Of a stretch of DNA of 64,000 bases, positions 41,719 through 60,720 are shown one piece after another. The stretch is taken from positions 31,712-95,711 of IMG/VR virus record IMGVR_UViG_3300030328_001039; one strand, written 5' to 3'. Under the pieces are notes generated by a model. It had not been told where the DNA came from and did not search any database. It saw only the letters and a list, made by a program, of their open reading frames with translations. The DNA is from a virus. A program made the translations under genes and the position numbers. The first letter of the stretch is position 1. Each line of letters starts with the position of its first letter.

Positions 41719-42633
41719 TTACCATTTGCTACTCACAGGATTTTTACTGAAGAGTTCCTCAAGCCTATTTTTTACTCGCAATCGAATTGGAGTGCGAGGC
41801 TCAACTTGTTTAGGAGAATAGATTTGAGCAATCTGATTTAACTCAAAAATATCGAGTCCAGTTTCATATTCATTCTTGTGTAAAAAGCGTACCATGTCGT
41901 TTGTTGAAAGATTACTACCGCTATCCGGTATGAAAGGGCAACCACCTAAGCCACCAATGCTTGTGTCAAACTGGGTAATACCCCAGTCCAAAGCACTTTG
42001 GATATTTGGGAACATATTGTCCTTCTTGTCAGCCTTGTGATGGAGGTGTAATGCTATTTCAGAATCAATGTGTCTTGATAATTCAAGAGTTCGATGAATA
42101 AGAGAAGGATGTGCTTTACCTATGGTGTCACATAATACAACAGTGTCACCCATATGTTGTGCTGCTTGCATGGCTTCTAACAATTTATGCTCGTCTACTT
42201 TTTCATTAGGAGCACCAAAAGCGCATGAAATGTAAGCCCTGACATTTTTTGGGTCTGTCTCCTGTAGCATAGAGTCAAGTTCTGCGATTATATCATCCAT
42301 GCTTTTTCCTAAGTTTGCTTTGTTAAAGAACTCAGATGCAGAAAAGAATACATTGATTTTTTCAGCACCAACGGCCAATGCTCTATCCATTCCTTTTTGA
42401 TTTGGTACAAGAGTAGCAAAATTACCAATGTCTTGAGTTGCAGTAAATACTTCTTCTGCATCAGCCATATTAGGTACAAGTTTAGGATGCACAAAAGATG
42501 TAATTTCCATTTCCTTTAGACCAGCGTGGTAAAGACGATTTACCAAATCAATTTTATCAGAAGTAGGAGTAAACTCTTCGATGTTTTGTAGACCGTCACG
42601 AGGGCCAACTTCGTAGAGTTTTACATCACTCAT
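41719..42633 (-). CDS. hmgL: Hydroxymethylglutaryl-CoA lyase (DRE-TIM metallolyase)
   Basis: EVGPRDGLQN, SFVHPKLVPNMAD, LVPNQKG, LCDTIG, ALHLH and GGLGGCPF..GNL-like motifs are all present. Start set at MSDVKLYE. Confidence 0.9.
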   Translation of the reverse strand: MSDVKLYEVGPRDGLQNIEEFTPTSDKIDLVNRLYHAGLKEMEITSFVHPKLVPNMADAEEVFTATQDIGNFATLVPNQKGMDRALAVGAEKINVFFSASEFFNKANLGKSMDDIIAELDSMLQETDPKNVRAYISCAFGAPNEKVDEHKLLEAMQAAQHMGDTVVLCDTIGKAHPSLIHRTLELSRHIDSEIALHLHHKADKKDNMFPNIQSALDWGITQFDTSIGGLGGCPFIPDSGSNLSTNDMVRFLHKNEYETGLDIFELNQIAQIYSPKQVEPRTPIRLRVKNRLEELFSKNPVSSKW

Positions 42634-42898
42634 TTCTTTCCCACCCCTCTTCTGTTTGAGTGTAACCTGCTGTTGAGCGAGCATCCATTCTATTTGTTAG
42701 CCATGCCATAAAATGACCAACAGCAGCACCACCAAGCCCTGCTAAAAGACCTGTTTGGAGAACTTCAGGTGGGATTGGTAGAGCCTTCTTTTTTGTATCA
42801 GGGTCGGCGGCATGAGTAGGGTCTTTGTCACCTTTTTTACCAACTGAAATGATTAGTACCATTCCGTGTTTCTTTCCGCCTACTTTGCTTTCTTTCAT
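42626..42898 (-). CDS. Small protein with Gly-rich hydrophobic segment
   Basis: ATGA overlap with the terL stop. Contains the LLAGLGGAAVGHFMAWL segment. Confidence 0.55.
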   Translation of the reverse strand: MKESKVGGKKHGMVLIISVGKKGDKDPTHAADPDTKKKALPIPPEVLQTGLLAGLGGAAVGHFMAWLTNRMDARSTAGYTQTEEGWERNE

Positions 42899-45707: not shown

Positions 45708-48043
45708 CAGACACCACCTACACTTACTTTGACTACCTTAACGACATCAGTAGAAACATTGAGTCGCTTTGCGATTCTCTCCCAGTCACCAGTGGCATAC
45801 GCAATTGAGCGAATATCAACTGGCGTTAGGTCTACACTCTTGGCAAGATGATGAACACCTGATAGGTCTGCAACATTGATTGGTCGAACCAGTGCGTGTT
45901 TCATAATCTTAGAATCAGCACGAGCATCATCCATCTGCATATCCTCCATAGCCTTCATCACTCTATCCATAGGTGAGAGTTCTTGTGATTGTGATTTCAT
46001 GTATTGGGTGAGCAAACGCTGTCGTGGGTCGCCCATTGTTTGTTGATACATTTGCTCTTGAGGGGATAGTTGCATACCTTGTCCTTGAGGTACTCTTGCG
46101 CCAGCCGCTTGTATAATTCTACGGAGAGATGCTGGTTCAGCCACGCCAACATGCCTTCGTGCTGCTACTAACTCAGGGCTTTGCGGTGTAAATGTTGGTG
46201 CTCCCCTTGGGGGTACTGACGGGGTTGAAGCAGCCGCTGGGGGAGCAGCAGCGGCTGGAGGTGGAGATGGGGCGGCAGCAGCAGGTCTTGGTGCTGCTGG
46301 AGCAGAAGGAGGTCTTTCTGTTGCTGGAGCAGTTCTTGAAGTGCTCATACTAGGAGCAAGAGATACATCATTGTAGAATGGAACATGAGCAGGTAGTCTT
46401 TCAACTAATTCATCAGGGTATGTCATGTAACGAGAAGATAGACCACCAGTTGGGAGAGTATCAGGTAATTGTCTACGAGTTTGATGACCAAATGCTTCAC
46501 TTACCAAATCAGCCAAAGCCTCAGTTGCCTGTCTGCGTTGTTCAACAGTTTCGTAACTCTGAAGATTTAATCCCAATCCTTGAATTACGCCAGCGTCAAT
46601 GTTACCTTCGGCATCTCTTGGCATATAGGCTCGTAATGCGCTATCGTGTTCATCATGAGTACCACTCAACATAGCCTTAGCATAGAACTCAGCAGCGTTC
46701 TTATGTGTTCCCAATCCTTGTGTAGTTTTTTGACCATCAAGAGTTTCTAGGTGTTTACCCGGAATAGCGTGTGAGTTTATCGCATCGAATCCAACATCAT
46801 GGTCTTTTCCAAATGCTTGAAGAATATGGTCAAACGCTCTTTTTCCTATACCGGGCTTTGCTGCTGACCCACTGTTAATACGACCAAACAACATATTGAA
46901 TGCTGGAGTTCTTGATAGTTCTTTTAGCATACCTTCAGTAAGAGTTGGTGTCCTCAATACTGTTCTAAGGTTCATCATAGTGTATCTAGGTTTTCCCGTA
47001 GTTCCCGGTGTAGTATTAATTGGAACATCAACATCAGGCACCTTATTAGGGTCAATGACTTTTAACGCCTCAGCGATATGGATTCTAGCACTATCAATAC
47101 CATTACTTAACCCAGTTTGCTGTCGATTACTCATCATGTGCATAAAGTCAGGAGTGTGATTCATAATCTCCCAAGACCGGATTCCAGTATGGGCTGCATC
47201 GTGAACGACACCGGGAGGAGCATTAGTAATGTGGAGACTTGGTAACATATACCCTTCAGAGGTCTGCATAATTTTATCCCCACCTCTACCACGAATACGA
47301 TTACCACGAGGGTGTAAATCCTTAATGTCAATATGAGGATTGTCAATAAACTCAGCACCGACTAAATCTTTCAGCCCAAGTTTTTCTAGTAGTATCTTTT
47401 GTAAATTATGATTGTAAGGAACAGCATATGATTCAATCATAGCACCTACTTTTTCGTTACGGTTTTGACGATTAGTATATGCTGTAATGTAGTCACCACT
47501 TTGAGACACATGAGCACGAGTTGTAGGTTTACGACCACCATAGCCAGCAACACGAATCTTTCGATGTTTTATATCATCAACATCAGGAATATTATGATAC
47601 CCGCTTTTATCTTCATGTTCTGCATTTGTCATATCAATTGCTGTTTGAACAAGATTTTGCGGAGTAAGAACTCCTAACTCCGGGTCATTTTGACCTAGCA
47701 ATCCATTTTTCTCTAATGATTCACCTACAGCATGGAGTACACCATCAATACCGTGGTGATGTGACTCTCCGTTCTCATCTAGGTATACCATCTCACCATG
47801 TTTACCTGTAGCAAACTTACCGGGAATTAACTCACCCATACCGAAGTGTCCTGACGGGTGATGCTTTGCTGCACCATGATGTGCAAAAGCGGGTACATCG
47901 GGAGTATTAGGGTCAGGATGGAATGCTTCGGGAGGAGGAGCAGTCTTTAGATACGGCTCAAGTCGCCCTGTTTCGGGATTAGTGTAGTAACCGTAAACAC
48001 CGTCACCCTTGCGAATAATGGATTTGCGAACTAAGATACTCAA
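45707..48043 (-). CDS. Hypothetical 778-aa protein with Pro/Ala linker and C-terminal HTH-like segment
   Basis: Long ORF with N-terminal SILVRKS and C-terminal WERIAKRLNVSTDVV. Confidence 0.7.
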   Translation of the reverse strand: MSILVRKSIIRKGDGVYGYYTNPETGRLEPYLKTAPPPEAFHPDPNTPDVPAFAHHGAAKHHPSGHFGMGELIPGKFATGKHGEMVYLDENGESHHHGIDGVLHAVGESLEKNGLLGQNDPELGVLTPQNLVQTAIDMTNAEHEDKSGYHNIPDVDDIKHRKIRVAGYGGRKPTTRAHVSQSGDYITAYTNRQNRNEKVGAMIESYAVPYNHNLQKILLEKLGLKDLVGAEFIDNPHIDIKDLHPRGNRIRGRGGDKIMQTSEGYMLPSLHITNAPPGVVHDAAHTGIRSWEIMNHTPDFMHMMSNRQQTGLSNGIDSARIHIAEALKVIDPNKVPDVDVPINTTPGTTGKPRYTMMNLRTVLRTPTLTEGMLKELSRTPAFNMLFGRINSGSAAKPGIGKRAFDHILQAFGKDHDVGFDAINSHAIPGKHLETLDGQKTTQGLGTHKNAAEFYAKAMLSGTHDEHDSALRAYMPRDAEGNIDAGVIQGLGLNLQSYETVEQRRQATEALADLVSEAFGHQTRRQLPDTLPTGGLSSRYMTYPDELVERLPAHVPFYNDVSLAPSMSTSRTAPATERPPSAPAAPRPAAAAPSPPPAAAAPPAAASTPSVPPRGAPTFTPQSPELVAARRHVGVAEPASLRRIIQAAGARVPQGQGMQLSPQEQMYQQTMGDPRQRLLTQYMKSQSQELSPMDRVMKAMEDMQMDDARADSKIMKHALVRPINVADLSGVHHLAKSVDLTPVDIRSIAYATGDWERIAKRLNVSTDVVKVVKVSVGGV

Positions 48044-50883
48044 ACTCGCCCACTCCCTCTACCTACAAGAGCACCGGGGTCAAGCCCAAAATCTCGTGGC
48101 TCATTGTTTGCATCCTCTGTACCACCTTGGTTTCGATTTGTTTGTTTGGGATTATTGGCTGGGTAGTTGGGTAAAGTGCTCGCAGCACCAGCGGTGTCAG
48201 GTTCACCCTTACCTTTCTTTTTACTATCCTTGTCTTTCTTTTCACGCATCAATTCACGAATCTCTTTGAGAGCAATTCGCATCAATGCTGCTTGATATGC
48301 ATTCGCTTTGAGAATATCACTGTGCTGAGGAGTGTCCTCGCTCATTGTTATCATACCCGGCATCTTAGGTCGGACTAAGTGAGGCATCTTCATCTTAGGT
48401 GGTTGAATACTTGGAGCACGAACTGCATGTAGTCGTGGTCTTGGGACACGAGGATATTGTAGAGTGTTTGTCAAACGACCACCACCAGTTTGACCTGATA
48501 TGAATGAGCGTTGGCTATGTCTCATGTGTGGTGTGTATACTGTTCTTACACCGCCCAAGAGTTTACGAGCATCTTGTGAAGCAAGATAAGGTCTGTATTT
48601 TTGAGGGTCTTTAGATGGAGGTTGTTTACTAGCAAGACCTCGGTGTGAAAACTCAACGGAAAGGTGTGGCCTCATTAGCCCAGTTTTACGCCCCATCGGT
48701 AGATTACGACTGATATTTTTAGAGCGTCTTGATGAAATATTCCGAGGGTCGCCACCGCCCTTTGGTTTCTCAAACTGACCAGTAGATGGTCGCCACTTAG
48801 CATAACCCTCTTTCTTGCGTCTACGGGCTACACTACGCTTAGATTCTGATTTTTGGAGGTTTTGTTGTGAAGGATGTTCGCCTCTCGCCATATCAGTTTC
48901 TAAGTATTGGTCATAAACATCTCCTGTTATTTCGTGATACCTCCCACATTTAGGGCAAAATATGTCTACCAATTCTTTAGGGTTATCTTCAGGGCCACGA
49001 TAATGTGCTTCATAACTTCCATCGCATTCTTCTTCAGTATTGTCACAACGAGAACTTGGCCCTTTAGCGGAATAACCAACTGGTATCTGTTTCAACAAAG
49101 ACCAAGCAAAGTCCATAGGACTACTTTTTTTCACACGAGGGTCAGGGACTAATTGACCATTAACAAACGCCATTCCGGGTACTGGTGAATCTTGAATATC
49201 AGGTTCAGGTTCAGGTTCAGGTTCAGTGAATGGGCCGGGTGGTAGCATCTGAGAGGAGTACAATTGTCGATTATAAACAGTTTGAGGGTTCAGTTTAATT
49301 TTTCTAGCGACCTCTCTTAAATCAGCAATTTTATTTTTCTCATCCACAGTAGTGGGTAGTAGAGGTGTTTTATCATCATCCATTTCAGCCCTGTGTCTCA
49401 TCATTTCAGGATGGCTGCTATGTGCATATCGTAGCCATTCAGGAATACCCGCTGCTACATTTCTTTCTGCTCTATCCTCCGCATCTCGTCTTATTTTATG
49501 TGACAAACCTTGCCTCATGTGACCTCCTGAATGTCCTGAAGAAGCCCTTTTTCTATCAATATAACGCTGTGCTTCAATATCAGGATGGTGGTAATCTAAG
49601 GCTTCAGCCTCAGACATTTTGAGTAGTTGCCAAGCCAAGTCCATAGGCTCACCTGCTAGTTTATTTTGCCAATCATCATCAGGTTGCTCTTGCATCTGCG
49701 GCCCTAATAAATTACCAAGATAGTTTGCATGGGTATAGAGTGCGGCAAGATTACCTGCTATATGGGCCATAGGGTGTGCGTTACCTAATTCTTGGGTCAT
49801 CATAGCGTTTTTATGTTGGTCTACTAACCAACTTGGTAATTCATGCCCTCGCCCATCTAAGGTTTCGCTTAAATAAATCAATGAGTTTCTATGTTCCATT
49901 AAAGAGTCCATAGATTCTTGCGCTCCCCAAATATGCCGGTCATTATGCATCTGATTCATCATATCGGGGTCACCATGTATATGATTATCAAATCCTAACC
50001 CCTCCATCATACCCATATCTACCATATTGCTAATCGTAGGCATATCAAAGCCCATTATTTGTTTAAGCCATGTCTCTTTAGGTGTTTTTGATATATCATC
50101 AAAATTAATACGATGGCCTTCTTCCTCTTCCTTTAGTAATTGATAAGCCAAGTCCATAGGCTCACCTGCTAGTTTTTGACTAGAAAGGAAATCCGCAATA
50201 CTTTGTTTAAGTTCCTCTTCTTCTCTCTCTTTGTCAGTAACCGCTGGTTCAGGTTTTTCATAGAAGCCGGGAGATTCTCTAAGTTCTTCAATTTCATCTT
50301 GTAGTTCTTCACCCGCTTCGTTATGCATTATTTCTTTTTCAAACTCAGGGTCAAGATTTTGGCGAGGGTCACGAGGATTACCATCATAGTCATAGTAAAA
50401 CTCTTCATCGTAGAGGTCATCGTCATCGTCATCGTCATCGTATTTCAATAACCGCCAAGCCAAATCCATAGGCTCAGACATCTGAATCATTTGACCCCCA
50501 GCAGCACCCGGCCCTTTTGCTCCCATAGCAAGACTTGTTAGGAATCCACCAGCACCGCTTGGCATAGTTTGGTCTGATGGATTATCAGTAGAACCACGAG
50601 GCTTGAACTTCTCTTCTTCTTCGTCTACATCTTCTGTAGGTTTTTCGCCCTCAAGACCAAGATGATGTGAACGGACTTTGATATGACGGATTTTCTTATC
50701 TTCTTTTTCCTCTCGTTCTCGCTTGGCTTGTTTTTTGTCTCTGCGTCTTTCCTTGCTTTTAGCATCTTCAATACCGCTTGGTGGCCTTTCATCTTCGTGA
50801 TTAGCCCTAAACATTTCAGAGGACTCTGAGCGAGGGTTGTATATCCTCGTATCAGAGGTTCGGCCTTGCATACCCTCCGTCAT
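48040..50883 (-). CDS. Modular polyprotein-like protein with four (E/S)PMDxAW/YxLLK motifs
   Basis: Motifs at 50443-50475, 50131-50163, 49618-49650 and 49090-49122 separate compositionally distinct modules (acidic, His/Met-rich, Zn-finger, basic). Confidence 0.8.
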   Translation of the reverse strand: MTEGMQGRTSDTRIYNPRSESSEMFRANHEDERPPSGIEDAKSKERRRDKKQAKREREEKEDKKIRHIKVRSHHLGLEGEKPTEDVDEEEEKFKPRGSTDNPSDQTMPSGAGGFLTSLAMGAKGPGAAGGQMIQMSEPMDLAWRLLKYDDDDDDDDLYDEEFYYDYDGNPRDPRQNLDPEFEKEIMHNEAGEELQDEIEELRESPGFYEKPEPAVTDKEREEEELKQSIADFLSSQKLAGEPMDLAYQLLKEEEEGHRINFDDISKTPKETWLKQIMGFDMPTISNMVDMGMMEGLGFDNHIHGDPDMMNQMHNDRHIWGAQESMDSLMEHRNSLIYLSETLDGRGHELPSWLVDQHKNAMMTQELGNAHPMAHIAGNLAALYTHANYLGNLLGPQMQEQPDDDWQNKLAGEPMDLAWQLLKMSEAEALDYHHPDIEAQRYIDRKRASSGHSGGHMRQGLSHKIRRDAEDRAERNVAAGIPEWLRYAHSSHPEMMRHRAEMDDDKTPLLPTTVDEKNKIADLREVARKIKLNPQTVYNRQLYSSQMLPPGPFTEPEPEPEPDIQDSPVPGMAFVNGQLVPDPRVKKSSPMDFAWSLLKQIPVGYSAKGPSSRCDNTEEECDGSYEAHYRGPEDNPKELVDIFCPKCGRYHEITGDVYDQYLETDMARGEHPSQQNLQKSESKRSVARRRKKEGYAKWRPSTGQFEKPKGGGDPRNISSRRSKNISRNLPMGRKTGLMRPHLSVEFSHRGLASKQPPSKDPQKYRPYLASQDARKLLGGVRTVYTPHMRHSQRSFISGQTGGGRLTNTLQYPRVPRPRLHAVRAPSIQPPKMKMPHLVRPKMPGMITMSEDTPQHSDILKANAYQAALMRIALKEIRELMREKKDKDSKKKGKGEPDTAGAASTLPNYPANNPKQTNRNQGGTEDANNEPRDFGLDPGALVGRGSGRV

Positions 50884-51281
50884 GTATTATCCCCCATGAT
50901 ATGGTATTCAAAACACTGTCGCAACTTTTCGCTTATTTTTCTATAGAATGACATTATTCTCGGACTATCTTGAAACGCCGAAGTCATGTTTTCCATCGTA
51001 TATTCAAACTCCTCAAGCAAGCGAGGTATAAGATTGTAAGCAGGGAAAAATGTAGTAGGGTTATCATCTTCAAATACGGTTTCAAAAGACTTTGCTAACA
51101 ACTTGAATAAATCAGGTGGTGTGATATTTAGTTCACCATAGTGCTCAAATCTTTCTATGACGCAGCGACAAAAATCAAGATACATCGGTACATGACTTTC
51201 AAAAATAACCAATTCACTATCTACCATTGAATAACCCGGATGGGTCATCTGCAACAAATCAGGCACTGGAACTGGCATCAA
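50880..51281 (-). CDS. Hypothetical protein
   Basis: 4-nt start/stop overlaps with both neighbours. Confidence 0.65.
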   Translation of the reverse strand: MMPVPVPDLLQMTHPGYSMVDSELVIFESHVPMYLDFCRCVIERFEHYGELNITPPDLFKLLAKSFETVFEDDNPTTFFPAYNLIPRLLEEFEYTMENMTSAFQDSPRIMSFYRKISEKLRQCFEYHIMGDNT

Positions 51282-51961
51282 TTCATATCACCTGCGTGCT
51301 CTAATAGTTGTTTACGAACTCTAGCCCAAGATTCAGGACTCTCTTTTCCAAGTTCAAGTTTGAGAATGTTAATTGTGTTGTTAATTTGGTTGTTTTCAGT
51401 TGTAGGACTCCATTGTTCATTCATCTTCAATAAGTCCTTTATTGATTCTCTGACTTCTTTGTGTAGAGAAACTGCGTCTCTAACAAAACCATCTTCATGC
51501 ACGCTACCCTCATTTAGTAACTCAGTTAGTTTAACATTAAGTAATTCAACATTTGACCTAAGCGCATTGATTTCTTCTCCCACCACTAATGTAATTTCAG
51601 CGGCTGCGCTTCTTTGAACTAAAGGTTGAAAGTGATGTTTCATATGATGGTAGACTGATGACTCAGCAATTTCAAGTTCCTCAGCAATAGCCTCGGATTC
51701 AGAGCCATCTTCAAAAAATCTACGCTCAAAATCAGCCCTTTCGGGGTGAGCGCATACTTTGCATTGAGGGTTAGAAGCCATATGATATTGACCCATGTGA
51801 TTACGGAAATGACGGTCAGTTGTGTTGAGCCGCCAGCCCATATCTTTGTCAAGTTGTTTAGGTGATATTTCACCATCAAGCAGACCCTTTTCTAAATCGG
51901 CACGACTAGGATGTTGGCACAAAGGGCAAGACCTTTTTGTGATACCACCACCCTCCGCCAT
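51278..51961 (-). CDS. Tandem Zn-finger/HTH protein, candidate terminase small subunit
   Basis: Two copies of CxxCxHP-x~30-HxxxH enclosing HTH-like helices, then a coiled-coil. Located upstream of terL. Confidence 0.55.
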   Translation of the reverse strand: MAEGGGITKRSCPLCQHPSRADLEKGLLDGEISPKQLDKDMGWRLNTTDRHFRNHMGQYHMASNPQCKVCAHPERADFERRFFEDGSESEAIAEELEIAESSVYHHMKHHFQPLVQRSAAAEITLVVGEEINALRSNVELLNVKLTELLNEGSVHEDGFVRDAVSLHKEVRESIKDLLKMNEQWSPTTENNQINNTINILKLELGKESPESWARVRKQLLEHAGDMN

Positions 51962-52021
51962 GACACGCTTAAAGCAGCATTACCCATAATGCTTTTTCTC
52001 CTGAACCTTTTCGGAGGTATT

Positions 52022-52306
52022 ATGCTGCCACCTTACGAGAGAGTACCGAAACAGCCTCTCAAAAAGCGTGGTAAAGATTTACTTAATGCTTCAAAAGATG
52101 CACTGAAAGGTCGTAGAGTCTCAAAAGAAGAATACATGGAGAGGCTTGATGAGTGTTATCAATGCCCTTACATGCAAAAAAGAATGGGTACTTGCCGACT
52201 GTGCAATTGTGTAATGAAAATTAAGGCACTTGCACCCTCAGTTGGCTGTCCTATAGACAAGTGGTTACCGAGTAATTCGGGAGTAGAGAGTAGTCAGGAA
52301 AACTAA
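52022..52306 (+). CDS. Cys-rich small protein (CxxC...CxxCxC...CPxxKW), DUF6171-like
   Basis: GGAGGT RBS at 52014-52019 before the ATG at 52022. The conserved Cys pattern is common in marine viruses. It is the only convincing plus-strand gene. Confidence 0.75.
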   Translation: MLPPYERVPKQPLKKRGKDLLNASKDALKGRRVSKEEYMERLDECYQCPYMQKRMGTCRLCNCVMKIKALAPSVGCPIDKWLPSNSGVESSQEN

Positions 52307-52516
52307 TCCTCCAAAGATACCCACTACAAATACACTAACATCTCCGCTGCTCATTGAATCTCCCTTGAAAACTAAGATAGATGCACAAGCGATAATGATT
52401 GAAATAAACTGAACCATTATCATTTCTACAATGATGTTTCTGCTTGGAGCAAATATAGTGCTACTTGCTTGACTTATTCTCATGCTGTAATCAGACATAC
52501 TACCTGCTTGAACCAT
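52265..52516 (-). CDS. Small two-TM membrane protein
   Basis: Two hydrophobic helices (IIVEMIMVQFISIIIACASILVF; VSVFVVGIFGGLVFLTTLY). AGGTGA RBS. Confidence 0.75.
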   Translation of the reverse strand: MVQAGSMSDYSMRISQASSTIFAPSRNIIVEMIMVQFISIIIACASILVFKGDSMSSGDVSVFVVGIFGGLVFLTTLYSRITR

Positions 52517-52525
52517 TTTATCACC

Positions 52526-53188
52526 TTAATTTCTTGGTAGTCCTATGAGTCCACGAGCGACACTACCAATTCCGCCACCGACTTTGTTCATCATTCCTTC
52601 ATCTTGTAAAGCAGCACCAAGAGCATTACCCATTAGAGACTGTTGAGCCATATTGAAAATCTGTTGTCTTTGCATTTCAGCATCTTGGAACTTTTGATTA
52701 CTTGTAGCCACCATGTTGTTAAGAATCATACTAACATTTTCTATGCTAAGTGTCTGTAAGTCAGAAGGTAAAGTAGAGGGGTCAAGTTTCATACCGCCTT
52801 CTTCTTCATCAATAACAAATGTAGCATTCTTTAGAATGTTAAGCAAACTTAGGCTTGTAGTAGCAGCAATCAAATCTATTAAAGTCCCAAGCCCTCCGTC
52901 TTTGATAAAACGATGAATTGGATTTTGAGATTGTAGTAAAGCACCCATCAACTCCATTTCGCTTGGAGGAGTGAATTGTTGTTGTTGATACATTTGTTGC
53001 TGTTGCTGATTCATCCCAGCCCCATTCATCAAACCAGCCATTAATCCTTGATTTTGCTGTTGCTGCATAGGTTGTGCTCCAAGAGTAAAGTTGCTTTGTG
53101 GTTGCTGCATTCCGTAGTTTATCCCTCCGCCAGTTGCTGAAAGATTCAACCCACCAGTTTGCTGTTGTTGATTACCAAGACCTAACAT
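52526..53188 (-). CDS. Gln/Gly/Met-rich protein
   Basis: Q-rich low-complexity N-terminus and amphipathic C-terminus. Confidence 0.7.
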   Translation of the reverse strand: MLGLGNQQQQTGGLNLSATGGGINYGMQQPQSNFTLGAQPMQQQQNQGLMAGLMNGAGMNQQQQQMYQQQQFTPPSEMELMGALLQSQNPIHRFIKDGGLGTLIDLIAATTSLSLLNILKNATFVIDEEEGGMKLDPSTLPSDLQTLSIENVSMILNNMVATSNQKFQDAEMQRQQIFNMAQQSLMGNALGAALQDEGMMNKVGGGIGSVARGLIGLPRN

Positions 53189-53192
53189 CGTA

Positions 53193-54131
53193 TCATGCCT
53201 CTCCAGTAACTAATCCACCATCAAGGTTCTGTTGTATTTTGCCATTTTCAGTATTAAGTAATTCTTGAAATGCTTGTGTCGGCATATTCATTTGTTGTAG
53301 TTCCATTTGGAATATACGCAAGTCGAATACAACCATCGTTACATCGTTTTGACCAGTTGCTGGATTTGCATAATGTAGTATATTGATACCTTTTGTTTTA
53401 CCTGCATCTCTTTCTAGTTCAGCAAAGAAAGGCTCATACTTTTGCAGCATAGCAGGTGTTGGGTCACTTTTCTTCACAGATGAAATAGGAACGGTAACAA
53501 TTGATACTCCTCTCTTTACTTTATCACGAAGGCGGCTTGGATTCATCTCATTTTGCTTATCCTCTTCAGCCTCCCACTTTACCAAAAGATGGTAGAGATG
53601 CATATGCTCAGGGCAATATGTTCCTTTGAGTTTACGACCACTGGTTACCTTATCCTGAGCGATGAAGGCTTCAGGCTGGCCTGTAACTGGATTTTGCCAA
53701 TACATTTCCCATAAAGAGCGACCAGTTTCTTCGTCACTAATTTTCATGTAGAGATTGTCATGTTGAATTAAATTAGCACAGTTACAACCGTCTACAACAC
53801 ATGTGCCAGTATCTTTTGCGTATCTGTATTTTCTACCAAACAACCATCTCATAGGATTGAATGCTGAATGCTTTGCTGGTTGAAGTAATTTGTAGGCTTG
53901 CTTGATGTCTTTACGGCGAGCCTTTCTTGGGTCAGGATGACGACTTGGATAAAAATTAACTTTGGGAACTTCAATATTTCCCGATGCTGCTGCTGCCGCT
54001 TGCATACCTTGTTGAGCCATCAACATTTCTTGTAGAGCAGCCTGAGTAAGTTGGTCGTTACCTTGCATAGCCAAAGTTGCTAATTGTGCTTCGTTAAGAT
54101 TCTGTTGTTGATTTCTACTGAAGTTCATCAT
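53193..54131 (-). CDS. Protein with Q-rich N-terminus and Cys/His (CxxxxC...CxxH) Zn-binding motif
   Basis: CVVDGCNC...YCPEH. ATGA overlap with the upstream gene. Confidence 0.7.
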   Translation of the reverse strand: MMNFSRNQQQNLNEAQLATLAMQGNDQLTQAALQEMLMAQQGMQAAAAASGNIEVPKVNFYPSRHPDPRKARRKDIKQAYKLLQPAKHSAFNPMRWLFGRKYRYAKDTGTCVVDGCNCANLIQHDNLYMKISDEETGRSLWEMYWQNPVTGQPEAFIAQDKVTSGRKLKGTYCPEHMHLYHLLVKWEAEEDKQNEMNPSRLRDKVKRGVSIVTVPISSVKKSDPTPAMLQKYEPFFAELERDAGKTKGINILHYANPATGQNDVTMVVFDLRIFQMELQQMNMPTQAFQELLNTENGKIQQNLDGGLVTGEA

Positions 54132-54325
54132 CCTATCACAACCTGTTCAGGCGTAGGGGTCATTACTACAACAATTTGTCCCTCTTGAACTACAAACCTC
54201 CAATGAACATCATCACCAGCATTTAACCCAAAATGCTCAACTATCCACATAGGAACTGTGGTTCTAAGACTACGGCTACCACCGCCAGTAGATACCAATG
54301 TTGTTGAAGAGTTCTTACCTGACAT
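54128..54325 (-). CDS. AbrB/MazE/SpoVT-family DNA-binding protein
   Basis: SLRTTVPMWIVEHFGLNAGDDVHW fits the AbrB swapped-hairpin consensus. GGTGAGG RBS before the ATG at 54325. Confidence 0.8.
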   Translation of the reverse strand: MSGKNSSTTLVSTGGGSRSLRTTVPMWIVEHFGLNAGDDVHWRFVVQEGQIVVVMTPTPEQVVIG

Positions 54326-54380
54326 ATCCTCACCGAAAGAGTTGTTATTCAAAAGGCTACCTATGGGGTCATTTTTTGGG

Positions 54381-55103
54381 TCACGAGGTCAAAAGACTCA
54401 CCATTGTCTTTTCTACATTCCATCCTATTCTTGTTGCCATGAATGACCTTCTAGTAGGAATACCTGCTTTTTGTAAACGAATTAAATCATCTCTAAACGG
54501 GTCAAATATCTTATGTTCGCCTATTCTCCCATCGTGCCAAAGTTTTGAAGCAGTCTCATCAAAAAATCGGTCAGCCTTGTTAGCGACTAACATAATGACT
54601 TTTGGATGGTATTTTCTACCTTTTAATCTCGACCAAAATGAACGATAGCGATAGTTTCTATTGATAAGAGAATCTACAAGATAACGGAAACCTGCAATTT
54701 GTTGTAAACCTTCATCTCCTCCTTTGAATGCTCTATCGTCAAAAATGTAGATAATTGCTTCTACACCACGAGTAACCATATCTTCAATCCAAAGATTCCA
54801 AAAACGCTCTTGCCCTCCTATATCAGCAGAATATACAACTCGCTTTTCACCTTGCCAAGATACTCTTTTTCTTGTCGGCTTTGGCATTTTGTACTTACCA
54901 ATTTTTAGTATACGAGAATGAATGGTTCTTTCATCTTCAGGTATTTCCTCCATTTCACCCGGAGTTGTGAGGTAACGGTCAAGCGTAGTTTTACCAACCA
55001 TAGGTGCTCCATAGACACCGACCTTTCTTGGTTTGTAAGAATTATAGAGATTCTGACCCCACATCGCTGCGCCTACTAAGGCTGTGCCACCTGCATCTAC
55101 CAT
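54381..55103 (-). CDS. Small Ras-superfamily (Arf/Rab-like) GTPase
   Basis: G1 GAPMVGKT, G2 candidate (ERT), G3 DIGGQERF and G4 ANKAD are intact, with a G5-like MAT and an N-terminal amphipathic segment. Confidence 0.9.
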   Translation of the reverse strand: MVDAGGTALVGAAMWGQNLYNSYKPRKVGVYGAPMVGKTTLDRYLTTPGEMEEIPEDERTIHSRILKIGKYKMPKPTRKRVSWQGEKRVVYSADIGGQERFWNLWIEDMVTRGVEAIIYIFDDRAFKGGDEGLQQIAGFRYLVDSLINRNYRYRSFWSRLKGRKYHPKVIMLVANKADRFFDETASKLWHDGRIGEHKIFDPFRDDLIRLQKAGIPTRRSFMATRIGWNVEKTMVSLLTS

Positions 55104-55109
55104 AGAACA

Positions 55110-55367
55110 TCAATCCCACCATTTTAGCCAAATAACAAGTTGCTCTAACTTATTAACAGTCCACTCTACAGTATTTTCATAAACACTGAAACTGTTATTA
55201 TGAAACTCAATACCACTGATAACTAAGGCTGTGATAAGGGATGCAAGAACAGTTTTTATCCAACCCCATGTTCTTTCGTAGGCATTATCCACAGTGTTGG
55301 CTATGTGAATAGCACGAAGGGTACTCTCAGTTGCATCGTCAGAAGGTGTACGAAAGATTCGACCCAT
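55110..55367 (-). CDS. Small membrane protein
   Basis: TM segment WGWIKTVLASLITALVISGIEF and an aromatic C-terminus. GTGAGGA RBS. Confidence 0.7.
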   Translation of the reverse strand: MGRIFRTPSDDATESTLRAIHIANTVDNAYERTWGWIKTVLASLITALVISGIEFHNNSFSVYENTVEWTVNKLEQLVIWLKWWD

Positions 55368-55376
55368 TCATATTCC

Positions 55377-55994
55377 TCACTCTTTCTTTTGATACCTTTT
55401 GTCAGGAGTGCCGTCTTTCTTCAGTGGTACTTCTTCATCTATACCAAGAGTAAGTGGTTGTCGGATTTTTGCCTCGTGAGTGGGAATACGACTACTATCA
55501 AAGACTGAAGAACCTCCGCCCCTATTATCAAATGAGCCAATCATAGATGGTGAGCCACCTGTTACTCCCCAACTTGGGGGCATCTGACCGGGGTTTTCCT
55601 CCATCCAGCGAAGTTCACGCTCAAGTTGCGCTTCTTGCATTCGCATTTCCATTTCAGCCCTACGGTTATCAAACTGTTGCTGCATCACACGGTATTGGTG
55701 GCTTCTTTGTTTCTCAATGTTACCATGCCGTACTTTTTCTTGTAGATTTTGCTCAAAGAACATTTTGAAAAAGTAGTAAGCAATACCTTGCATAAAGAAA
55801 GCACCCATAGCATAGGTGAATCCATTTACCCAAACGCTGTCTTGACGCAACCAAACCTCTGCATCAAAGATACCGATTGCTACTCCAACAAGTGTGCTTT
55901 GGGCTAAAATCAATCCCATTAGCCTAATTTCTGCTTCGTGATGGTCAGTTGAATCCATAGTGTCCACTGGTATGTCCACTCCGGGGGTCACCAT
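55377..55994 (-). CDS. Two-TM membrane protein with coiled coil
   Basis: Two hydrophobic helices, then a Q/E/R coiled coil. The C-terminal LKKDGTPDKRY is a short basic motif. Confidence 0.75.
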   Translation of the reverse strand: MVTPGVDIPVDTMDSTDHHEAEIRLMGLILAQSTLVGVAIGIFDAEVWLRQDSVWVNGFTYAMGAFFMQGIAYYFFKMFFEQNLQEKVRHGNIEKQRSHQYRVMQQQFDNRRAEMEMRMQEAQLERELRWMEENPGQMPPSWGVTGGSPSMIGSFDNRGGGSSVFDSSRIPTHEAKIRQPLTLGIDEEVPLKKDGTPDKRYQKKE

Positions 55995-56010
55995 AAAGGT
56001 TGCTGGGGCT

Positions 56011-56096
56011 GTTGTCCGAGTTGTCCGTTGTATTGTTTATACATTTTACAAGAATATATTATTTGTCTATATCAGACATTAGACAAGTCGGACAAC
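56011..56096. promoter_or_regulatory. AT-rich intergenic promoter region bracketed by 15-bp inverted repeat
   Basis: gttgtccgagttgtc (56011-56025) vs gacaagtcggacaac (56082-56096), 14/15 complementary, with an AT-rich core. Confidence 0.6.
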
Positions 56097-57983
56097 TTAG
56101 AATGGATAAGGGTGCGTCAATTCTTTTCTATCTTCGCCACCCTCTTCTTGTTTGTAGTCATCTAACGATGTAAGAAGAGCCTGTGCTATCTTTTTGTCTT
56201 GCTCATCCATTGGCCCATTCATAAGATTTCTTAACAATTCTAAATCGCCTTTGAGTCCTTTTGTTAGAGGGCGTTTTGTACCTTTCTCTCGGAAATGTCG
56301 TGCTCGGTTATCGTGCTCATCTTCTACTGTCAATTTACCACCTTCGGTATGGGAAATGTCACGGTGAGAGTGGTCACCGTACATACCACGCTTTCGTCTT
56401 TCTCTATTCAACTCTTCTCGGTATTTGATTCGCTCAGGCGATGACTCATACTTTGTGTCATATTCTTTTTTATGACGCTTTGCTTCAGGAGACTTACGCT
56501 CTTTACGAACTACACCAATATCTGTCATACTAACACCACTTTTTTTGACTTTTTCGGGATAGTGGTAAAGGAATACAGGCACTGATGTATCACCATGCCC
56601 CATTTGTCTTAGAGCCTCCATACGATGACCACCATCTTGTTCTCCAGTAAACTCATTATTTCGGAAATATAAAGAAGGCATACCGATTGGTTTTCCTTCT
56701 TTAATACCCTCCATAATACGGTCTATATTTTCACGACTGCCCCCCCACGGAGAAAACTTCATTCCATCCCATCTATATTTTGCTTCTTTACCGGGTATGG
56801 GCGGTGCTGTGAATAATCCTCTATCTACTCCACCTTCTTTTTCAGCAAGGGCTTGAATAACATCAAAGTATTCATTAGGAGTCATTTGACCAATTTGGGT
56901 CTTACTATTTAGGTCACCGCCACCCATACCTTCACCGTCAAAATCTGTAAAATACGGTTGAGTGCCAATAGTAGGTTCAGGATAATTATGAGGATGAATC
57001 CATTTTTCATTGTAACCCATACGGACACCGGGAATGTCAGTGTCTATTATAGGCATTTTGAGTAATCGCATAGCAATTTCCATTGGTTCACTTCGTACAA
57101 TAGCAGGGTGTCTACTTGCTAAATCTTGTGCTACTTGTTCGCCTGACATGAAAGACGGGTAAAAATCAGGACTTGGTGTATGACCGACTTGCGCTCTTAT
57201 TGCACCGTATTCATCCCAGTTTGTAAAATCTTGAGGAGTAGGATTGTTACCGGCTAATATCTGCTCTCTAAATGCTTCAGACAAAGGTACTTTTTGTGCT
57301 TCGTGCATAGCCTCATGCGTAGCAGTTTGTCCCATGTGGTCTATGAGTTTACGCTCTTGTGTTTCTTCATCATCACCCAATTGACCTAAACCTAATCTTC
57401 GCCCGTATTCGCTAAGGTTAATTCCCCTAAAGGGCATATCTTTGCTTTGACCCCCCCAAGCAGATTGCATGTTCCATGACATAGGTGAAATCATACTACC
57501 CATCTCTTGATGACCTCCTGTTGCTGCACGAGTTTTCGCATCTGCAATCATTATAGGTTCGTCTATTGTTGGGTCTAAAGCCCATTCATGCCCTTCTTTT
57601 CTTGCTTGTTGTAGTCCTTTTGGGTCTGTGTCACCAAAATAAAAAGATGCTTTGAGTAATCGCATAGCAATTTCCATTGGCTCGCCTGTCATTATATCTT
57701 GAAACTCAGGAGTAAACTTTGTTTCATTTCTAAACATTGATTGCTGGCTAAGTGGGTGCTCATCAGGTAGAGGGAAATAATCTTGGTCACGCTCTCTTAT
57801 CTTTGACTCCCGTATAAGTTCATCGAGCACATTACTTAGTTGTTCACCATTAATAGGTAAAGATAACATACTTCTAGGAATGTGTTTATCTAATAACCTC
57901 ATCGTTTTATCCGAATTAGGATTCAACATTTCTGATAAATCTTGCATAGGTATCATAGCAAAAGGGCGAGCCTCTTCAGGCAT
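56097..57983 (-). CDS. Modular protein: two EPMEIAMRLLK motifs, HExxH module, ParB/Srx-like module, HNH-like basic module
   Basis: Motifs at 57651-57683 and 57057-57089, HEAMH at 57303-57317, DGGHRMEAL at about 56610-56636. Confidence 0.8.
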   Translation of the reverse strand: MPEEARPFAMIPMQDLSEMLNPNSDKTMRLLDKHIPRSMLSLPINGEQLSNVLDELIRESKIRERDQDYFPLPDEHPLSQQSMFRNETKFTPEFQDIMTGEPMEIAMRLLKASFYFGDTDPKGLQQARKEGHEWALDPTIDEPIMIADAKTRAATGGHQEMGSMISPMSWNMQSAWGGQSKDMPFRGINLSEYGRRLGLGQLGDDEETQERKLIDHMGQTATHEAMHEAQKVPLSEAFREQILAGNNPTPQDFTNWDEYGAIRAQVGHTPSPDFYPSFMSGEQVAQDLASRHPAIVRSEPMEIAMRLLKMPIIDTDIPGVRMGYNEKWIHPHNYPEPTIGTQPYFTDFDGEGMGGGDLNSKTQIGQMTPNEYFDVIQALAEKEGGVDRGLFTAPPIPGKEAKYRWDGMKFSPWGGSRENIDRIMEGIKEGKPIGMPSLYFRNNEFTGEQDGGHRMEALRQMGHGDTSVPVFLYHYPEKVKKSGVSMTDIGVVRKERKSPEAKRHKKEYDTKYESSPERIKYREELNRERRKRGMYGDHSHRDISHTEGGKLTVEDEHDNRARHFREKGTKRPLTKGLKGDLELLRNLMNGPMDEQDKKIAQALLTSLDDYKQEEGGEDRKELTHPYPF

Positions 57984-57984
57984 T

Positions 57985-60720
57985 TTACATCACACCTATT
58001 GATTTTGGGAAATTATAATCATTCAAAACTAGAGCCGAATTGTTTCTACTTGCTTCTGTTGCTTGTTGCATAAAGTCATCAGCCCAAGTAGCACCATCTC
58101 TCATTGGTGAGCCAAATATTTGTTTTTCTCGCTCATTGTCTCCTATTTTGCGAGTGTAAGTACCCGGTGCTGTTTCGGTTTCACGCAAAGGTCTGTTTAC
58201 CAATTCTCTAATATGGTCATAGTCCGTAATAGGTTGCATACCTTGTTTGTCAAAGATTCTAGGCCATGCTCCACTGACTTCTATGTAATGACCCGGTATC
58301 TGCATATGCTCCGTCATATGGTCTACAGTGGCACGCTTTGCTGCTGTTTGTCCATCATGTGCTGTTATGGAGGCTTTGAATCCCTGCTCTTGTTGAGAAA
58401 ATACTCTTGCTGCGTCTACATATGGGTCTTGGTCATTGTCAATCATATCATACCGAGCGTGCTTGCCTTCATTTTTCAAATCATTACCATCGCTGTATTT
58501 ATCGTGACCACCCACTGGTTTGTAAGCGATATTCATAGCATTCGCTACTTCATCATATAATTGAGGTCGTGCATCCATCCCCTCTTTTGGTAAACTCACC
58601 CATGAATCTTTGATACCAAAATACTCATTGAAGTTTCTCGGAGAAGGTGCGTGCATATCTGTTTGACTTTCCCATTTCAACAACTGCATAGCAATCTCCA
58701 TTGGTTCGCTTGCTACTTTACGAGCACCACCTCTCTTGTCACGGAGCGTTTCATCCATATCAAGCCCAAGTTCTTCAGCCTTCTCTCTAACTTTACGCAT
58801 GGCTATTTCTGCTGGTACTCTTTCTTCACTAAAAGCCTCAAAGCCTTCGCCTTCAGGAGATGTGAATTGTCCAGTGAGTGCTCGGAATCCAGCATCACCA
58901 ATTGTTGTATTCCAATCACGATTGTATTCTGACTCTTGTATAGGTAGACCAATCTCTTCCATCAATTTTCTTTGATTACCTAAAGCACGAGTTTCCCAAT
59001 CTATCGCTCTTAGCATTTCACGAGGAGTTCTTTGTCCTAATTTACCAAGCCTACGACCCTCTCCCCATTCTGCGTTCAAATCTTCAAGACCTTGTGCGTG
59101 CCCAAGTTCATGCAGTTTTCTCCAATTATCAGTGAATGGTTTGTTAGCGCCAAATGAAGTCGCTGCAACTCCGGGGTCAAAAATAGCAAGATGACCTGTA
59201 TTGTAGTTCTTCTTATCTAAATCGGGATTAGGGTATTCACCACCGAAGTAATATGGTTCGTAACCATAACTTGCTAACAACTCATTTACTTGAGGTGACA
59301 TTTCTGCTAATTCAGATGAGTAAGGTTGTACTGGTTTATCCACCATATCAAGATTCTGTTTACCATAGTGCCTCATAACATCCCAAAAGCGTGGGTCATT
59401 TCTTGGAGCGTGCTGTCCGCTAACATCAATCGCTTCTTTCAACAACTGAAAGGCGATGTCCATTGGTTCACTGGCTAACTTCTTCCATTGTGAAGGGTCA
59501 ATAGCGTGCGCTCTAAATCCTAATTCACTTCCCGGCTCGCCATAATTAAGTCCTTCAACCATAGAGGCTCTATCGTGCCATGTGTCCAGTAAATCACCGG
59601 GGTCAATCCCCTGCGCTATCGCATAATCAAATAATTCATTTGTTTTGGTTTTAAGGTGTTCATCAGCCTCATCGTTCCATAGTTGCTCGTGAGGGGCAAG
59701 TTCCATTTGATTCTCATAATCTATTTGTTCTTTCAACAACTGATAAGCGATGCCCATTGGTTCACTGCGAGTGAAGTATTTCTTAGGGTCAGCATCAGGT
59801 GTATCTAGTGATAATCCTTCAAATGTACCCTCTCTTGTAAATGGATGAACTCTCCTTTGTATTCCTTGACTAGCGTTAGGGGGCGTTAATTTAGTCGGTA
59901 ATTGAATTGGCCCACCGCCCGGTGGCTGAGTAAATGGTACTTTTTCTTTCAGACCCATTGGTACATTTTCTGTATTCTCAGCCATGTTGGGGTCTGCTTG
60001 TCGCCCCTTGATTCTTTTCGCTCTTTCTCTTAGTGCCTCGACATAATCTTCTTGAGGCATTTTGAACTTACGAGGGTCGGGAACTTCATCATCTTCTTCT
60101 TTGAGTAACCGCCAAGCGAGGTTCATTGGTTCACCAGTTTGTACCGATGCACCACGGCGAGCCATTTCCATAGCACGCTGCTCTTGCGCTTGTTTTCTCT
60201 GAGCATTTTGTGCTTGCATTTGTCCGGCTAACTGCATACCGACTTTTTTGTAATCAGTTTTGTTACCACCAGCACCACTTGGCTCTTCAGGTTCAGGTAT
60301 TTCAGCCGCTGGTTCAGCAGCAGGTGATTCAGGTAAAGGTACGCTGTCTGTTCCATCACTTGCTTTGGGTAAACTCGGCTTAGGTGCAGCAGACTCCACT
60401 GCTTCAGCAGCACTAGCCATGCCTTCAGCAGCACCTGCTGCCTCTGTTGCAGCACCGCCACCTTTGACACCGACTTTCGCTTTGATGTTCTTCAGTCCAC
60501 CGCCGAGAGCGACCTTCAATCCTGTGCCTAGTTTACCTAAACCAGTTTTCATAGCACCTCTAACGCCCTGCGTGGCTACTGCATTAGCAGCACCTTGAGC
60601 GCCTACACGAGTAAGAAGTCCTACTAATGGTGCCCACTTTTCAATATCATCAAAATTGAAAAACTTATGAATGTCATCGGGAGAATCCCACGGCACAAAG
60701 TCGTAGTTTTCACTCGGCAT
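57985..60720 (-). CDS. Modular protein with four EPMxxAxxLLK motifs and an HExxH module
   Basis: Motifs at 60100-60132, 59731-59763, 59437-59469 and 58675-58707. HELGH at 59098-59112. Confidence 0.8.
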   Translation of the reverse strand: MPSENYDFVPWDSPDDIHKFFNFDDIEKWAPLVGLLTRVGAQGAANAVATQGVRGAMKTGLGKLGTGLKVALGGGLKNIKAKVGVKGGGAATEAAGAAEGMASAAEAVESAAPKPSLPKASDGTDSVPLPESPAAEPAAEIPEPEEPSGAGGNKTDYKKVGMQLAGQMQAQNAQRKQAQEQRAMEMARRGASVQTGEPMNLAWRLLKEEDDEVPDPRKFKMPQEDYVEALRERAKRIKGRQADPNMAENTENVPMGLKEKVPFTQPPGGGPIQLPTKLTPPNASQGIQRRVHPFTREGTFEGLSLDTPDADPKKYFTRSEPMGIAYQLLKEQIDYENQMELAPHEQLWNDEADEHLKTKTNELFDYAIAQGIDPGDLLDTWHDRASMVEGLNYGEPGSELGFRAHAIDPSQWKKLASEPMDIAFQLLKEAIDVSGQHAPRNDPRFWDVMRHYGKQNLDMVDKPVQPYSSELAEMSPQVNELLASYGYEPYYFGGEYPNPDLDKKNYNTGHLAIFDPGVAATSFGANKPFTDNWRKLHELGHAQGLEDLNAEWGEGRRLGKLGQRTPREMLRAIDWETRALGNQRKLMEEIGLPIQESEYNRDWNTTIGDAGFRALTGQFTSPEGEGFEAFSEERVPAEIAMRKVREKAEELGLDMDETLRDKRGGARKVASEPMEIAMQLLKWESQTDMHAPSPRNFNEYFGIKDSWVSLPKEGMDARPQLYDEVANAMNIAYKPVGGHDKYSDGNDLKNEGKHARYDMIDNDQDPYVDAARVFSQQEQGFKASITAHDGQTAAKRATVDHMTEHMQIPGHYIEVSGAWPRIFDKQGMQPITDYDHIRELVNRPLRETETAPGTYTRKIGDNEREKQIFGSPMRDGATWADDFMQQATEASRNNSALVLNDYNFPKSIGVM

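Follow-up and report, generated by a model that had tools for sequence, protein, structure and literature searches.

A candidate membrane-switch cassette with a probable Arf-like small GTPase in magrovirus-type tailed viruses of Marine Group II archaea

Why would a tailed virus of archaea carry the gene of a small GTPase, and why would that gene lie in a run of genes for membrane proteins? The question is raised by a 64,000-nucleotide stretch of viral DNA (the window), which corresponds to bases 31712–95711 of the 95.7-kb IMG/VR record IMGVR_UViG_3300030328_001039, whose completeness is estimated at about 90%. Seven co-directional genes occupy positions 55994–52265 on the minus strand of the window, with spacings that range from a 4-nt overlap to a 28-nt gap, and the third of them encodes a protein of 240 residues with the motifs of a GTPase. 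A preliminary description of the locus took this protein for an Arf/Rab-like small GTPase and the run for a membrane-remodelling, egress/lysis or assembly-site module of an archaeal virus. The comparisons described below indicate what appears to be a new, virus-specific family of Arf-like GTPases with its own set of partners. It can be proposed, tentatively, that late in infection the GTPase and its cassette partners act at the host membrane as a nucleotide-dependent switch, with virion release as the most likely output.

A divergent family of small GTPases

The open reading frame (ORF) of the GTPase begins with ATG and contains the motifs GAPMVGKT (G1), DIGGQERFWNLW (G3) and NKAD (G4), as well as a G5-like S-F-M-A-T-R at residues 220–225. 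In an alignment of 131 family members, on which the conservation counts for this protein are based, G1 and NKxD are essentially invariant, R59-T60-x-H62 of the long switch I is kept in 126–128 members, and the final W105 of switch II is kept in 129. The reading frame, the motifs and the alignment agree with the earlier account of a stand-alone protein of 240 residues with intact G1, G3 and G4. The family itself is large: a word-indexed search retrieves 473 proteins, nearly all of 237–241 residues and many of them from Tara Oceans, and an exhaustive search of 1.8 billion representatives yields 74 clusters, all of at most 277 residues and none of them a fused form, with full-length matches that are 32–57% identical to the query. 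Some of the copies carry the automatic JGI label “GTPase SAR1 family protein”.

Proteins of this kind might be conceived as pseudo-GTPases, degenerate or inert, that persist as structural subunits only. The catalytic glutamine is replaced in 8 of the 131 relatives and switch I contains a 30-residue insertion, which would suit such a role; nevertheless, the nucleotide-binding residues (GxxxxGKT, the D and G of G3, and NKxD) are essentially invariant in hundreds of sequences, down to 32% identity, and a histidine at the glutamine position is also normal in Sar1. An inert protein is therefore given very little credence, and a functional GTPase is predicted with high confidence.

The AlphaFold2 (AF2) model of the protein, with a mean predicted local distance difference test score (pLDDT) of 85.9, has a Ras-superfamily fold with the six-stranded sheet and five helices of a small G-domain. 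Pfam gives only sub-threshold matches for the GTPase (Roc, E 0.002; Arf, PF00025, 10.5 bits against a cut-off of 22.3), and the only match of the cassette proteins in NCBIfam is a sub-threshold one to small_GTP. More informative are the comparisons that use the whole family or the model. When the family profile is compared with all the sequences of the PDB, the best match, full length, is GerdArfR1 of Asgard archaea (8OUN, E 1.8e-6; 10.1101/2024.02.28.582541), followed by Arl8A/B, ahead of Rab33 and KRas; and the structural matches of the model (VIA-align) at ranks 1–15 all belong to the Arf family, approximately 2 Z units above the Rabs. Of the label “Arf/Rab-like”, the Arf part is upheld by both kinds of match, while the Rab part is the weaker one. 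Because the Pfam threshold is missed and the placement comes from profile and structure matches instead of a tree, the protein is termed Arf-like and not a Pfam Arf member; its affinity with Arf proteins, in preference to another branch of the Ras superfamily, is likely.

In switch II the agreement with Arf is partial: D-I-G-G-Q-E-R-F-W-N-L-W keeps the D, the GG, the Q and the final W of the Arf pattern DxGGQxxxRxxW, with a Trp at the Arg position. At the N-terminal end, a helix predicted with low pLDDT at residues 4–23 is hydrophobic and nearly uncharged and precedes a basic K-P-R-K patch; the hydrophobic helix and the patch are conserved throughout the family. The differences are also considerable. 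With respect to eukaryotic Arf1, Arf6, Arl1 and Arl8 and to the Asgard ArfR proteins (GerdArfR1, 8OUN/8OUM; HodArfR1, 8OUK), the viral GTPase is 16–22% identical and has approximately 55 extra residues in three insertions, which the model predicts to be the 30-residue insertion in switch I (with the conserved R-T-x-H), an extra helix before beta5 and another between G4 and G5. The viral protein also differs from these proteins in the Trp of switch II, in the absence of the myristoylation Gly2, in the weak amphipathicity of the helix in the window member, and in belonging to a tailed virus whose host is an archaeon outside the Asgard group, without partners of the ArfGAP or Sec7 type.

The virus, its host and the conservation of the cassette

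All the large genes of the window lie on its minus strand, and those for morphogenesis include the genes of a large terminase (T4 type), of the portal and the prohead protease, and of an HK97-like capsid protein that belongs to the SU10 type. The counterparts of this capsid protein in HVTV-1, HCTV-1 and HCTV-5, which are tailed viruses of haloarchaea, are 33–35% identical to it, and the search with it returned no bacterial phage; magroviruses were first recognised by the same pattern of capsid similarity (PMC5434244), and the assignment of the present virus to the magrovirus type follows from it. A collinear relative, L084, is a 106,262-bp contig that resembles a magrovirus genome over its whole length (identity with the window proteins: 62% for the capsid protein, 46% for the terminase, 37% for the GTPase) and is found in the Poseidoniales single-cell genome AG-422-I20, which gives direct support for the host and links virus and host at the level of a single cell. 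The genome also contains a chaperonin gene, and chaperonins are common in magroviruses. Judged by these comparisons, the virus is a tailed virus of the magrovirus type that infects Poseidoniales (Marine Group II archaea), and not a halovirus. The structural genes and the capsid similarity thus confirm the tailed archaeal virus of the preliminary description, while the haloarchaeal host implied by its proposal of tests in Haloferax gives way to Poseidoniales, as the single-cell contig indicates.

The degree to which the cassette is conserved can be followed in three lineages. The close relatives are 80 IMG/VR loci in which the GTPase is 69–98% identical; the gene order of the cassette is the same in all of them, the GTPase is the best conserved protein (median 75%), and the next one (68%) is a protein of 312 residues with invariant cysteines and histidines (the Cys/His protein). 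In a second lineage, represented by L083 and L084 (GTPase 37–38%), the order is a protein with two transmembrane (TM) segments, a small TM protein, the GTPase, the Cys/His protein, a Gln-rich protein and a second two-TM protein, without the AbrB-like gene. The third lineage (L180; GTPase 34%; another 375 viral contigs) retains the two-TM, TM, GTPase, Cys/His and Gln-rich genes, and its Cys/His homologue matches the family profile with a probability of 93.8% (hhalign). In this lineage the capsid gene precedes the cassette by 1.2 kb on the same strand, whereas in the window the cassette lies approximately 25 kb upstream of the capsid gene; its location beside the capsid gene in one lineage indicates that the cassette is inherited, and moves, as a unit.

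According to this comparison, the deeply conserved core is made up of five genes (two-TM, small TM, GTPase, Cys/His and Gln-rich), and the AbrB-like gene and the terminal two-TM gene are lineage-specific additions outside it. The cluster of the preliminary description is therefore conserved with the GTPase in the 80 close loci and in two distant lineages, but two of its seven genes fall outside the deeply conserved core. The GTPase is present in the five tested relatives of at least 85 kb (5/5); two records that bear a major capsid protein gene and lack the GTPase are 39% and 74% complete, and the expected position of the gene falls past the end of the contig. By the same comparison the GTPase is a core gene of magroviruses, and it is highly likely that the cassette acts as one unit. 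Two short contigs with the magrovirus cassette, L082 (from a Maricaulis metagenome-assembled genome) and L083 (from one of Parvibaculum), are filed in alphaproteobacterial bins and are almost certainly mis-binned viral fragments.

Another way of accounting for the gene is to consider it a recent capture of a host small GTPase, of the MglA, ArvA or Rup type, with neighbours that have nothing to do with it. The genomes of the hosts offer little room for this. Among 101 Poseidoniales genomes, the family profile finds one match, on a 106-kb viral contig with capsid and terminase genes; the Pfam models of Arf and Roc each find none in 61 Poseidoniales genomes; and OapB, present in 74 of 151 genomes of the host’s phylum, is found in none of 41 Poseidoniales. 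These counts suggest that Poseidoniales may be devoid of Ras-superfamily small GTPases and of the ArvAB vesiculation system. What does speak for a capture is the alignment of the viral family with ArvA orthologues of the host’s phylum, taken from beside OapB (hhalign, 94%, E 1.2e-7), which is limited to the N-terminal part, with 75 columns between the P-loop and G3.

ArvA (OapA) of Haloferax volcanii is a small GTPase that drives vesicle formation together with neighbouring genes, one of which encodes a Zn-ribbon protein (PMC10927574). The viral cassette resembles the set of ArvA, ArvB and ArvC in its archaeal context, in the (putative) N-terminal membrane helix of the GTPase and in an operon in which small partner genes, one of them for a (putative) Zn-binding protein, accompany that of the GTPase; the N-terminal third of the two GTPases can be aligned, including a stretch “EIPxExR” in switch I. 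However, the likeness ends after G3, which in ArvA is DTPG, a feature of a protein that resembles EngA-type GTPases, and the viral cassette has neither an OapB (PF09846) nor a DUF2072 gene. Membership of the ArvA family was rejected on these three points: the end of the alignment at G3, the DTPG of ArvA and the absence of PF09846 and DUF2072 matches among the cassette proteins.

In the viral structure library, the only small GTPases are the Rab, Ras and Ran copies of giant eukaryotic viruses, in agreement with the earlier remark that such proteins are unusual in tailed viruses. Those copies (e.g., mimivirus Rab, 5XC5) are close to the host genes and belong to viruses of eukaryotes, whereas the magrovirus GTPase constitutes a divergent family with its own cassette and without a homologue in the searched host genomes. 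A collection of phage and archaeal-virus GenBank entries contains no DNA or protein match to the region, to the GTPase or to the Cys/His protein, and PHROGs has no family for the GTPase. Given that the exhaustive search found virus-type relatives only, that the GTPase and its partners co-occur in three lineages and that the 101 host genomes hold no homologue except on the viral contig, a recent host capture is largely refuted and retains hardly any probability; the MglA-type capture with no partners that the preliminary description had named as a finding against its reading is thus not what is seen. The family is, on present comparisons, virus-specific and highly divergent.

The genes of the cassette and their surroundings

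The features of the cassette are listed in Table 1. ORFs, hydropathy, Pfam and alignments bear out what had been said of the neighbours of the GTPase, namely that they are a two-TM, a single-TM, an AbrB-like, two Gln-rich and a second two-TM protein.

Table 1. Coordinates of the cassette features in the window and of three genes of the collinear relative L084
Feature	Position	Strand	Remarks
AT-rich non-coding gap	55995..56096	-	before the first cassette gene
205-aa membrane protein	55377..55994	-	two hydrophobic segments (one strong, one aromatic), charged helical region, C-terminal LKKDGTPDxRY motif
85-aa single-pass membrane protein	55110..55367	-	TM 35-55 (hydropathy); 6 nt upstream of the GTPase start
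240-aa divergent small GTPase, probably Arf-like	54381..55103	-	N-terminal hydrophobic helix; insertions in switch I, before beta5, and between G4 and G5
74-aa SpoVT/AbrB-like (swapped-hairpin) protein	54128..54352	-	accessory cassette member
312-aa orphan protein (Cys/His)	53193..54131	-	Gln-rich N-terminus; conserved core with invariant Cys/His
220-aa Gln/Met/Gly-rich low-complexity protein	52526..53188	-	conserved central motif (..LDPSTLPS..LS.EN..)
83-aa two-pass membrane protein	52265..52516	-	basic C-terminus (hydropathy); last gene of the run
L084 contig, capsid gene	79.7-80.9 kb		
L084 contig, terminase gene	91.5-92.9 kb		
L084 contig, GTPase gene	102.1-102.8 kb		

The AT-rich gap is likely the promoter region of the cassette. 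A gap of approximately 80–130 nt with TATA-like runs precedes the first cassette gene in 15 related loci, although the sequence itself is not conserved, and scans for sigma-70 promoters and terminators are uninformative for an archaeal virus. The first protein, of 205 residues, is found in 78 of the 80 close loci, and Q105, R111 and R112 are invariant in its alignment. Proteins of the same architecture occur at the same position in L083, L084 and L180; the two-TM protein of the third lineage has no significant similarity to it (hhalign E 0.045) and is regarded as a positional analogue only. The second gene, that of the 85-aa TM protein, is present in all 80 close loci, and TM proteins of 73–75 residues take the equivalent position in L083, L084 and L180.

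Downstream of the GTPase, the 74-aa protein does not reach the PF04014 cut-off (21.3 bits, where 24.7 are required); of 13 orthologues, however, 12 match this model at E <= 0.01 (best, 4.1e-6), and its AbrB-like nature thus finds support at the level of the family; profile matches to AbrB in the PDB are weak (E 0.38). Among the 80 close loci, tblastn detects the gene in 73; in L083, L084 and L180 nothing comparable stands in its place. The Cys/His protein, in which C111, C173, H176, H178 and H181 are invariant in the alignment (the last four as C173-P-x-H-x-H-x-x-H), has 722 homologues of the same length, all of them unnamed; its AF2 model is poor (pLDDT 65) and gives no Foldseek match at E <= 0.001, and the Atlas search with this protein gives no usable match. 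The Gln-rich protein of 220 residues is found in the 80 close loci, with counterparts that are 30–33% identical in L083 and L084 and a weak match to that of L180. The last gene, for the 83-aa two-TM protein, is present in the 80 close loci and in L083 and L084, and was not seen at this position in L180. For the partners of the GTPase PHROGs returns nothing meaningful, and neither does PADLOC for the cassette proteins.

At the 3' end of the cassette (52265), a conserved gene of the opposite strand, 51911–52306 (+), converges on it. It encodes a small Cys-rich protein (CxxC...CxxC...C) with a sub-threshold match to DUF6171 (E 1.2e-5), overlaps the ends of both flanking minus-strand genes and has tblastn matches of 27–100% identity in approximately 55 related loci; its true start probably lies close to Met38. 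The 227-aa protein encoded at 51278–51961 (-), directly beyond the downstream end of the cassette, combines an HTH_20 domain (E 1.7e-7) with two C-x-x-C-x-H-P motifs; it is present in the 80 close loci and in L083 and L084, and could be a regulator or a small terminase. The large proteins that flank the cassette, encoded at 48040–50883, 56097–57983 and 57985–60720 (-), contain several copies of the motif (G/S)EPM(D/E)(L/I)A(W/M/Y/F)xLLK, which is found in none of the seven cassette proteins.

Elsewhere in the structural arm, which is closed by a single ORF of 6068 residues at 874–19080 (-), two further genes can be mentioned. Between the terminase and portal genes, 41719–42684 (-) encodes an HMGL-like protein (pyruvate carboxyltransferase / HMG-CoA lyase type, E 5e-28), a candidate auxiliary metabolic gene within the morphogenesis module. 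Between the portal and prohead protease genes, 31587–37067 (-) encodes a protein of 1826 residues, in which the part around residues 1388–1486 gives a sub-threshold match to an ATP-dependent DNA ligase domain (E 1.4e-4).

Possible roles of the cassette

How could these elements work together? In its GTP state, the GTPase would bind the host cytoplasmic membrane through its N-terminal hydrophobic helix and basic patch, possibly with help in anchoring from the two small membrane proteins whose genes directly precede its own. Once at the membrane, it would recruit or organise the Cys/His and Gln-rich proteins encoded downstream. The cassette would probably be expressed late, because it is on the strand of the structural genes, and most likely its output would be that the host membrane is remodelled or perforated in a controlled way, so that virions are released. 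A switch of this kind is proposed because of the Arf-like fold and N-terminal helix, the three membrane proteins in the run and the position on the structural-gene strand; because the searched host genomes have no comparable small GTPase; because ArvA sets a precedent of GTPase-driven vesiculation in a euryarchaeon (PMC10927574); and because the egress of tailed archaeal viruses is unexplained, with no known route (PMC10791045). Considered separately, action at a membrane is moderately favoured, whereas egress or lysis as the output is doubtful. The module that the preliminary description had in mind holds up as a conserved cassette of archaeal viruses; its function is proposed from gene content and position, and GTP binding and hydrolysis, membrane binding, the contacts among partners, the late timing and the egress output are all inferred.

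Several observations weigh against a membrane switch for virion release. None of 14 diverse family members reaches any Pfam GTPase cut-off, and 3 of the 14 match Arf at E <= 0.1. The catalytic Gln of G3 is kept in 122 of the 131 aligned members, the replacements being His (3), Asp (2), Glu (2) and Ala (1). The N-terminal segment had been described as amphipathic, and the hydrophobic helix and the basic patch are there, but in the window GTPase the amphipathicity is weak: the hydrophobic moment (muH) is 0.23, compared with 0.3–0.48 in divergent relatives, and the same computation gives 0.40 for Arf1. The partners match no GTPase-activating protein, guanine nucleotide exchange factor, coat, holin or other known family or fold. 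Finally, the cassette of the third lineage is located inside the head-gene module, a position that suits a role in assembly as well as it suits egress.

This last point leads to the proposal that the cassette serves morphogenesis, forming a membrane-attached platform or a condensate, with the Gln-rich proteins as scaffold, for capsid assembly or packaging. The location of the cassette on the structural-gene strand, between the large tagged-protein genes and upstream of the terminase, the proximity of the capsid gene (1.2 kb) in the third lineage and the long low-complexity Gln-rich regions of two partners are all compatible with it. On the other hand, the heads of tailed viruses form without membranes in all known cases, the position of the cassette relative to the head genes varies, and HVTV-1, HCTV-1 and HCTV-5, which share the capsid protein, have no tblastn match to the GTPase or to the Cys/His protein; an assembly role is accordingly considered unlikely.

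A somewhat less probable alternative is that the cassette takes over the host or excludes superinfection, that is, that it alters the host envelope, transport or division and thereby blocks infection or division instead of releasing virions. Exclusion is a frequent role of small membrane proteins whose genes lie among the structural genes of phages, prokaryotic small GTPases regulate polarity or division, and no cassette protein resembles a lytic enzyme; yet PADLOC finds no match to a known defence or exclusion family, and the seven-gene cassette supplies a core set in three lineages, whereas exclusion genes are usually accessory and variable. Either role, that of an assembly platform or that of host manipulation or exclusion, fits the data almost as well as the membrane switch for virion release.

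The cassette can also be compared with the holin-based lysis cassettes of phages. In both cases small membrane proteins are encoded beside structural genes, and tailed phages express the latter late; the 83-aa protein of the last gene resembles a class II holin in size and topology (two TM segments and a basic C-terminus) only, with no holin family match in Pfam or PHROGs. The viral cassette differs in that no endolysin was found (none would be expected where the host lacks a murein wall) and in having a GTPase and two large soluble orphan proteins, to which nothing in holin systems corresponds.

A literature search found no paper that pairs the term magrovirus with GTPase and none that discusses the gene or the cassette, and the GTPase is not mentioned in the main magrovirus papers or in the supplements of one of them. 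Magroviruses rank among the most abundant archaeal viruses of the surface ocean (PMC5434244); no culture exists of these viruses or of their hosts. A virus-specific core GTPase cassette with membrane proteins provides a concrete candidate for egress that can be tested without the uncultured host. According to a preprint (10.1101/2024.02.28.582541), reports of Arf-related GTPases in archaea had concerned Asgard archaea and a single korarchaeon. An Arf-like family in a virus of Poseidoniales bears on how widely such membrane switches were distributed before eukaryotes and on their possible transfer by viruses. In its boldest form, which is speculative and unlikely as a whole, the proposal is that magroviruses encode a self-contained, minimal Arf-type membrane machine, absent from all the host genomes searched, in which membrane proteins serve as anchors, the GTPase as the switch, the Cys/His protein as a regulator and the Gln-rich protein as a scaffold, and which would bud, coat or open the archaeal membrane to release tailed virions. 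If that were the case, it would represent a new principle of egress for tailed viruses, Arf-like membrane GTPases would operate outside the Asgard–eukaryote lineage, and viruses would be possible carriers of such genes between archaea.

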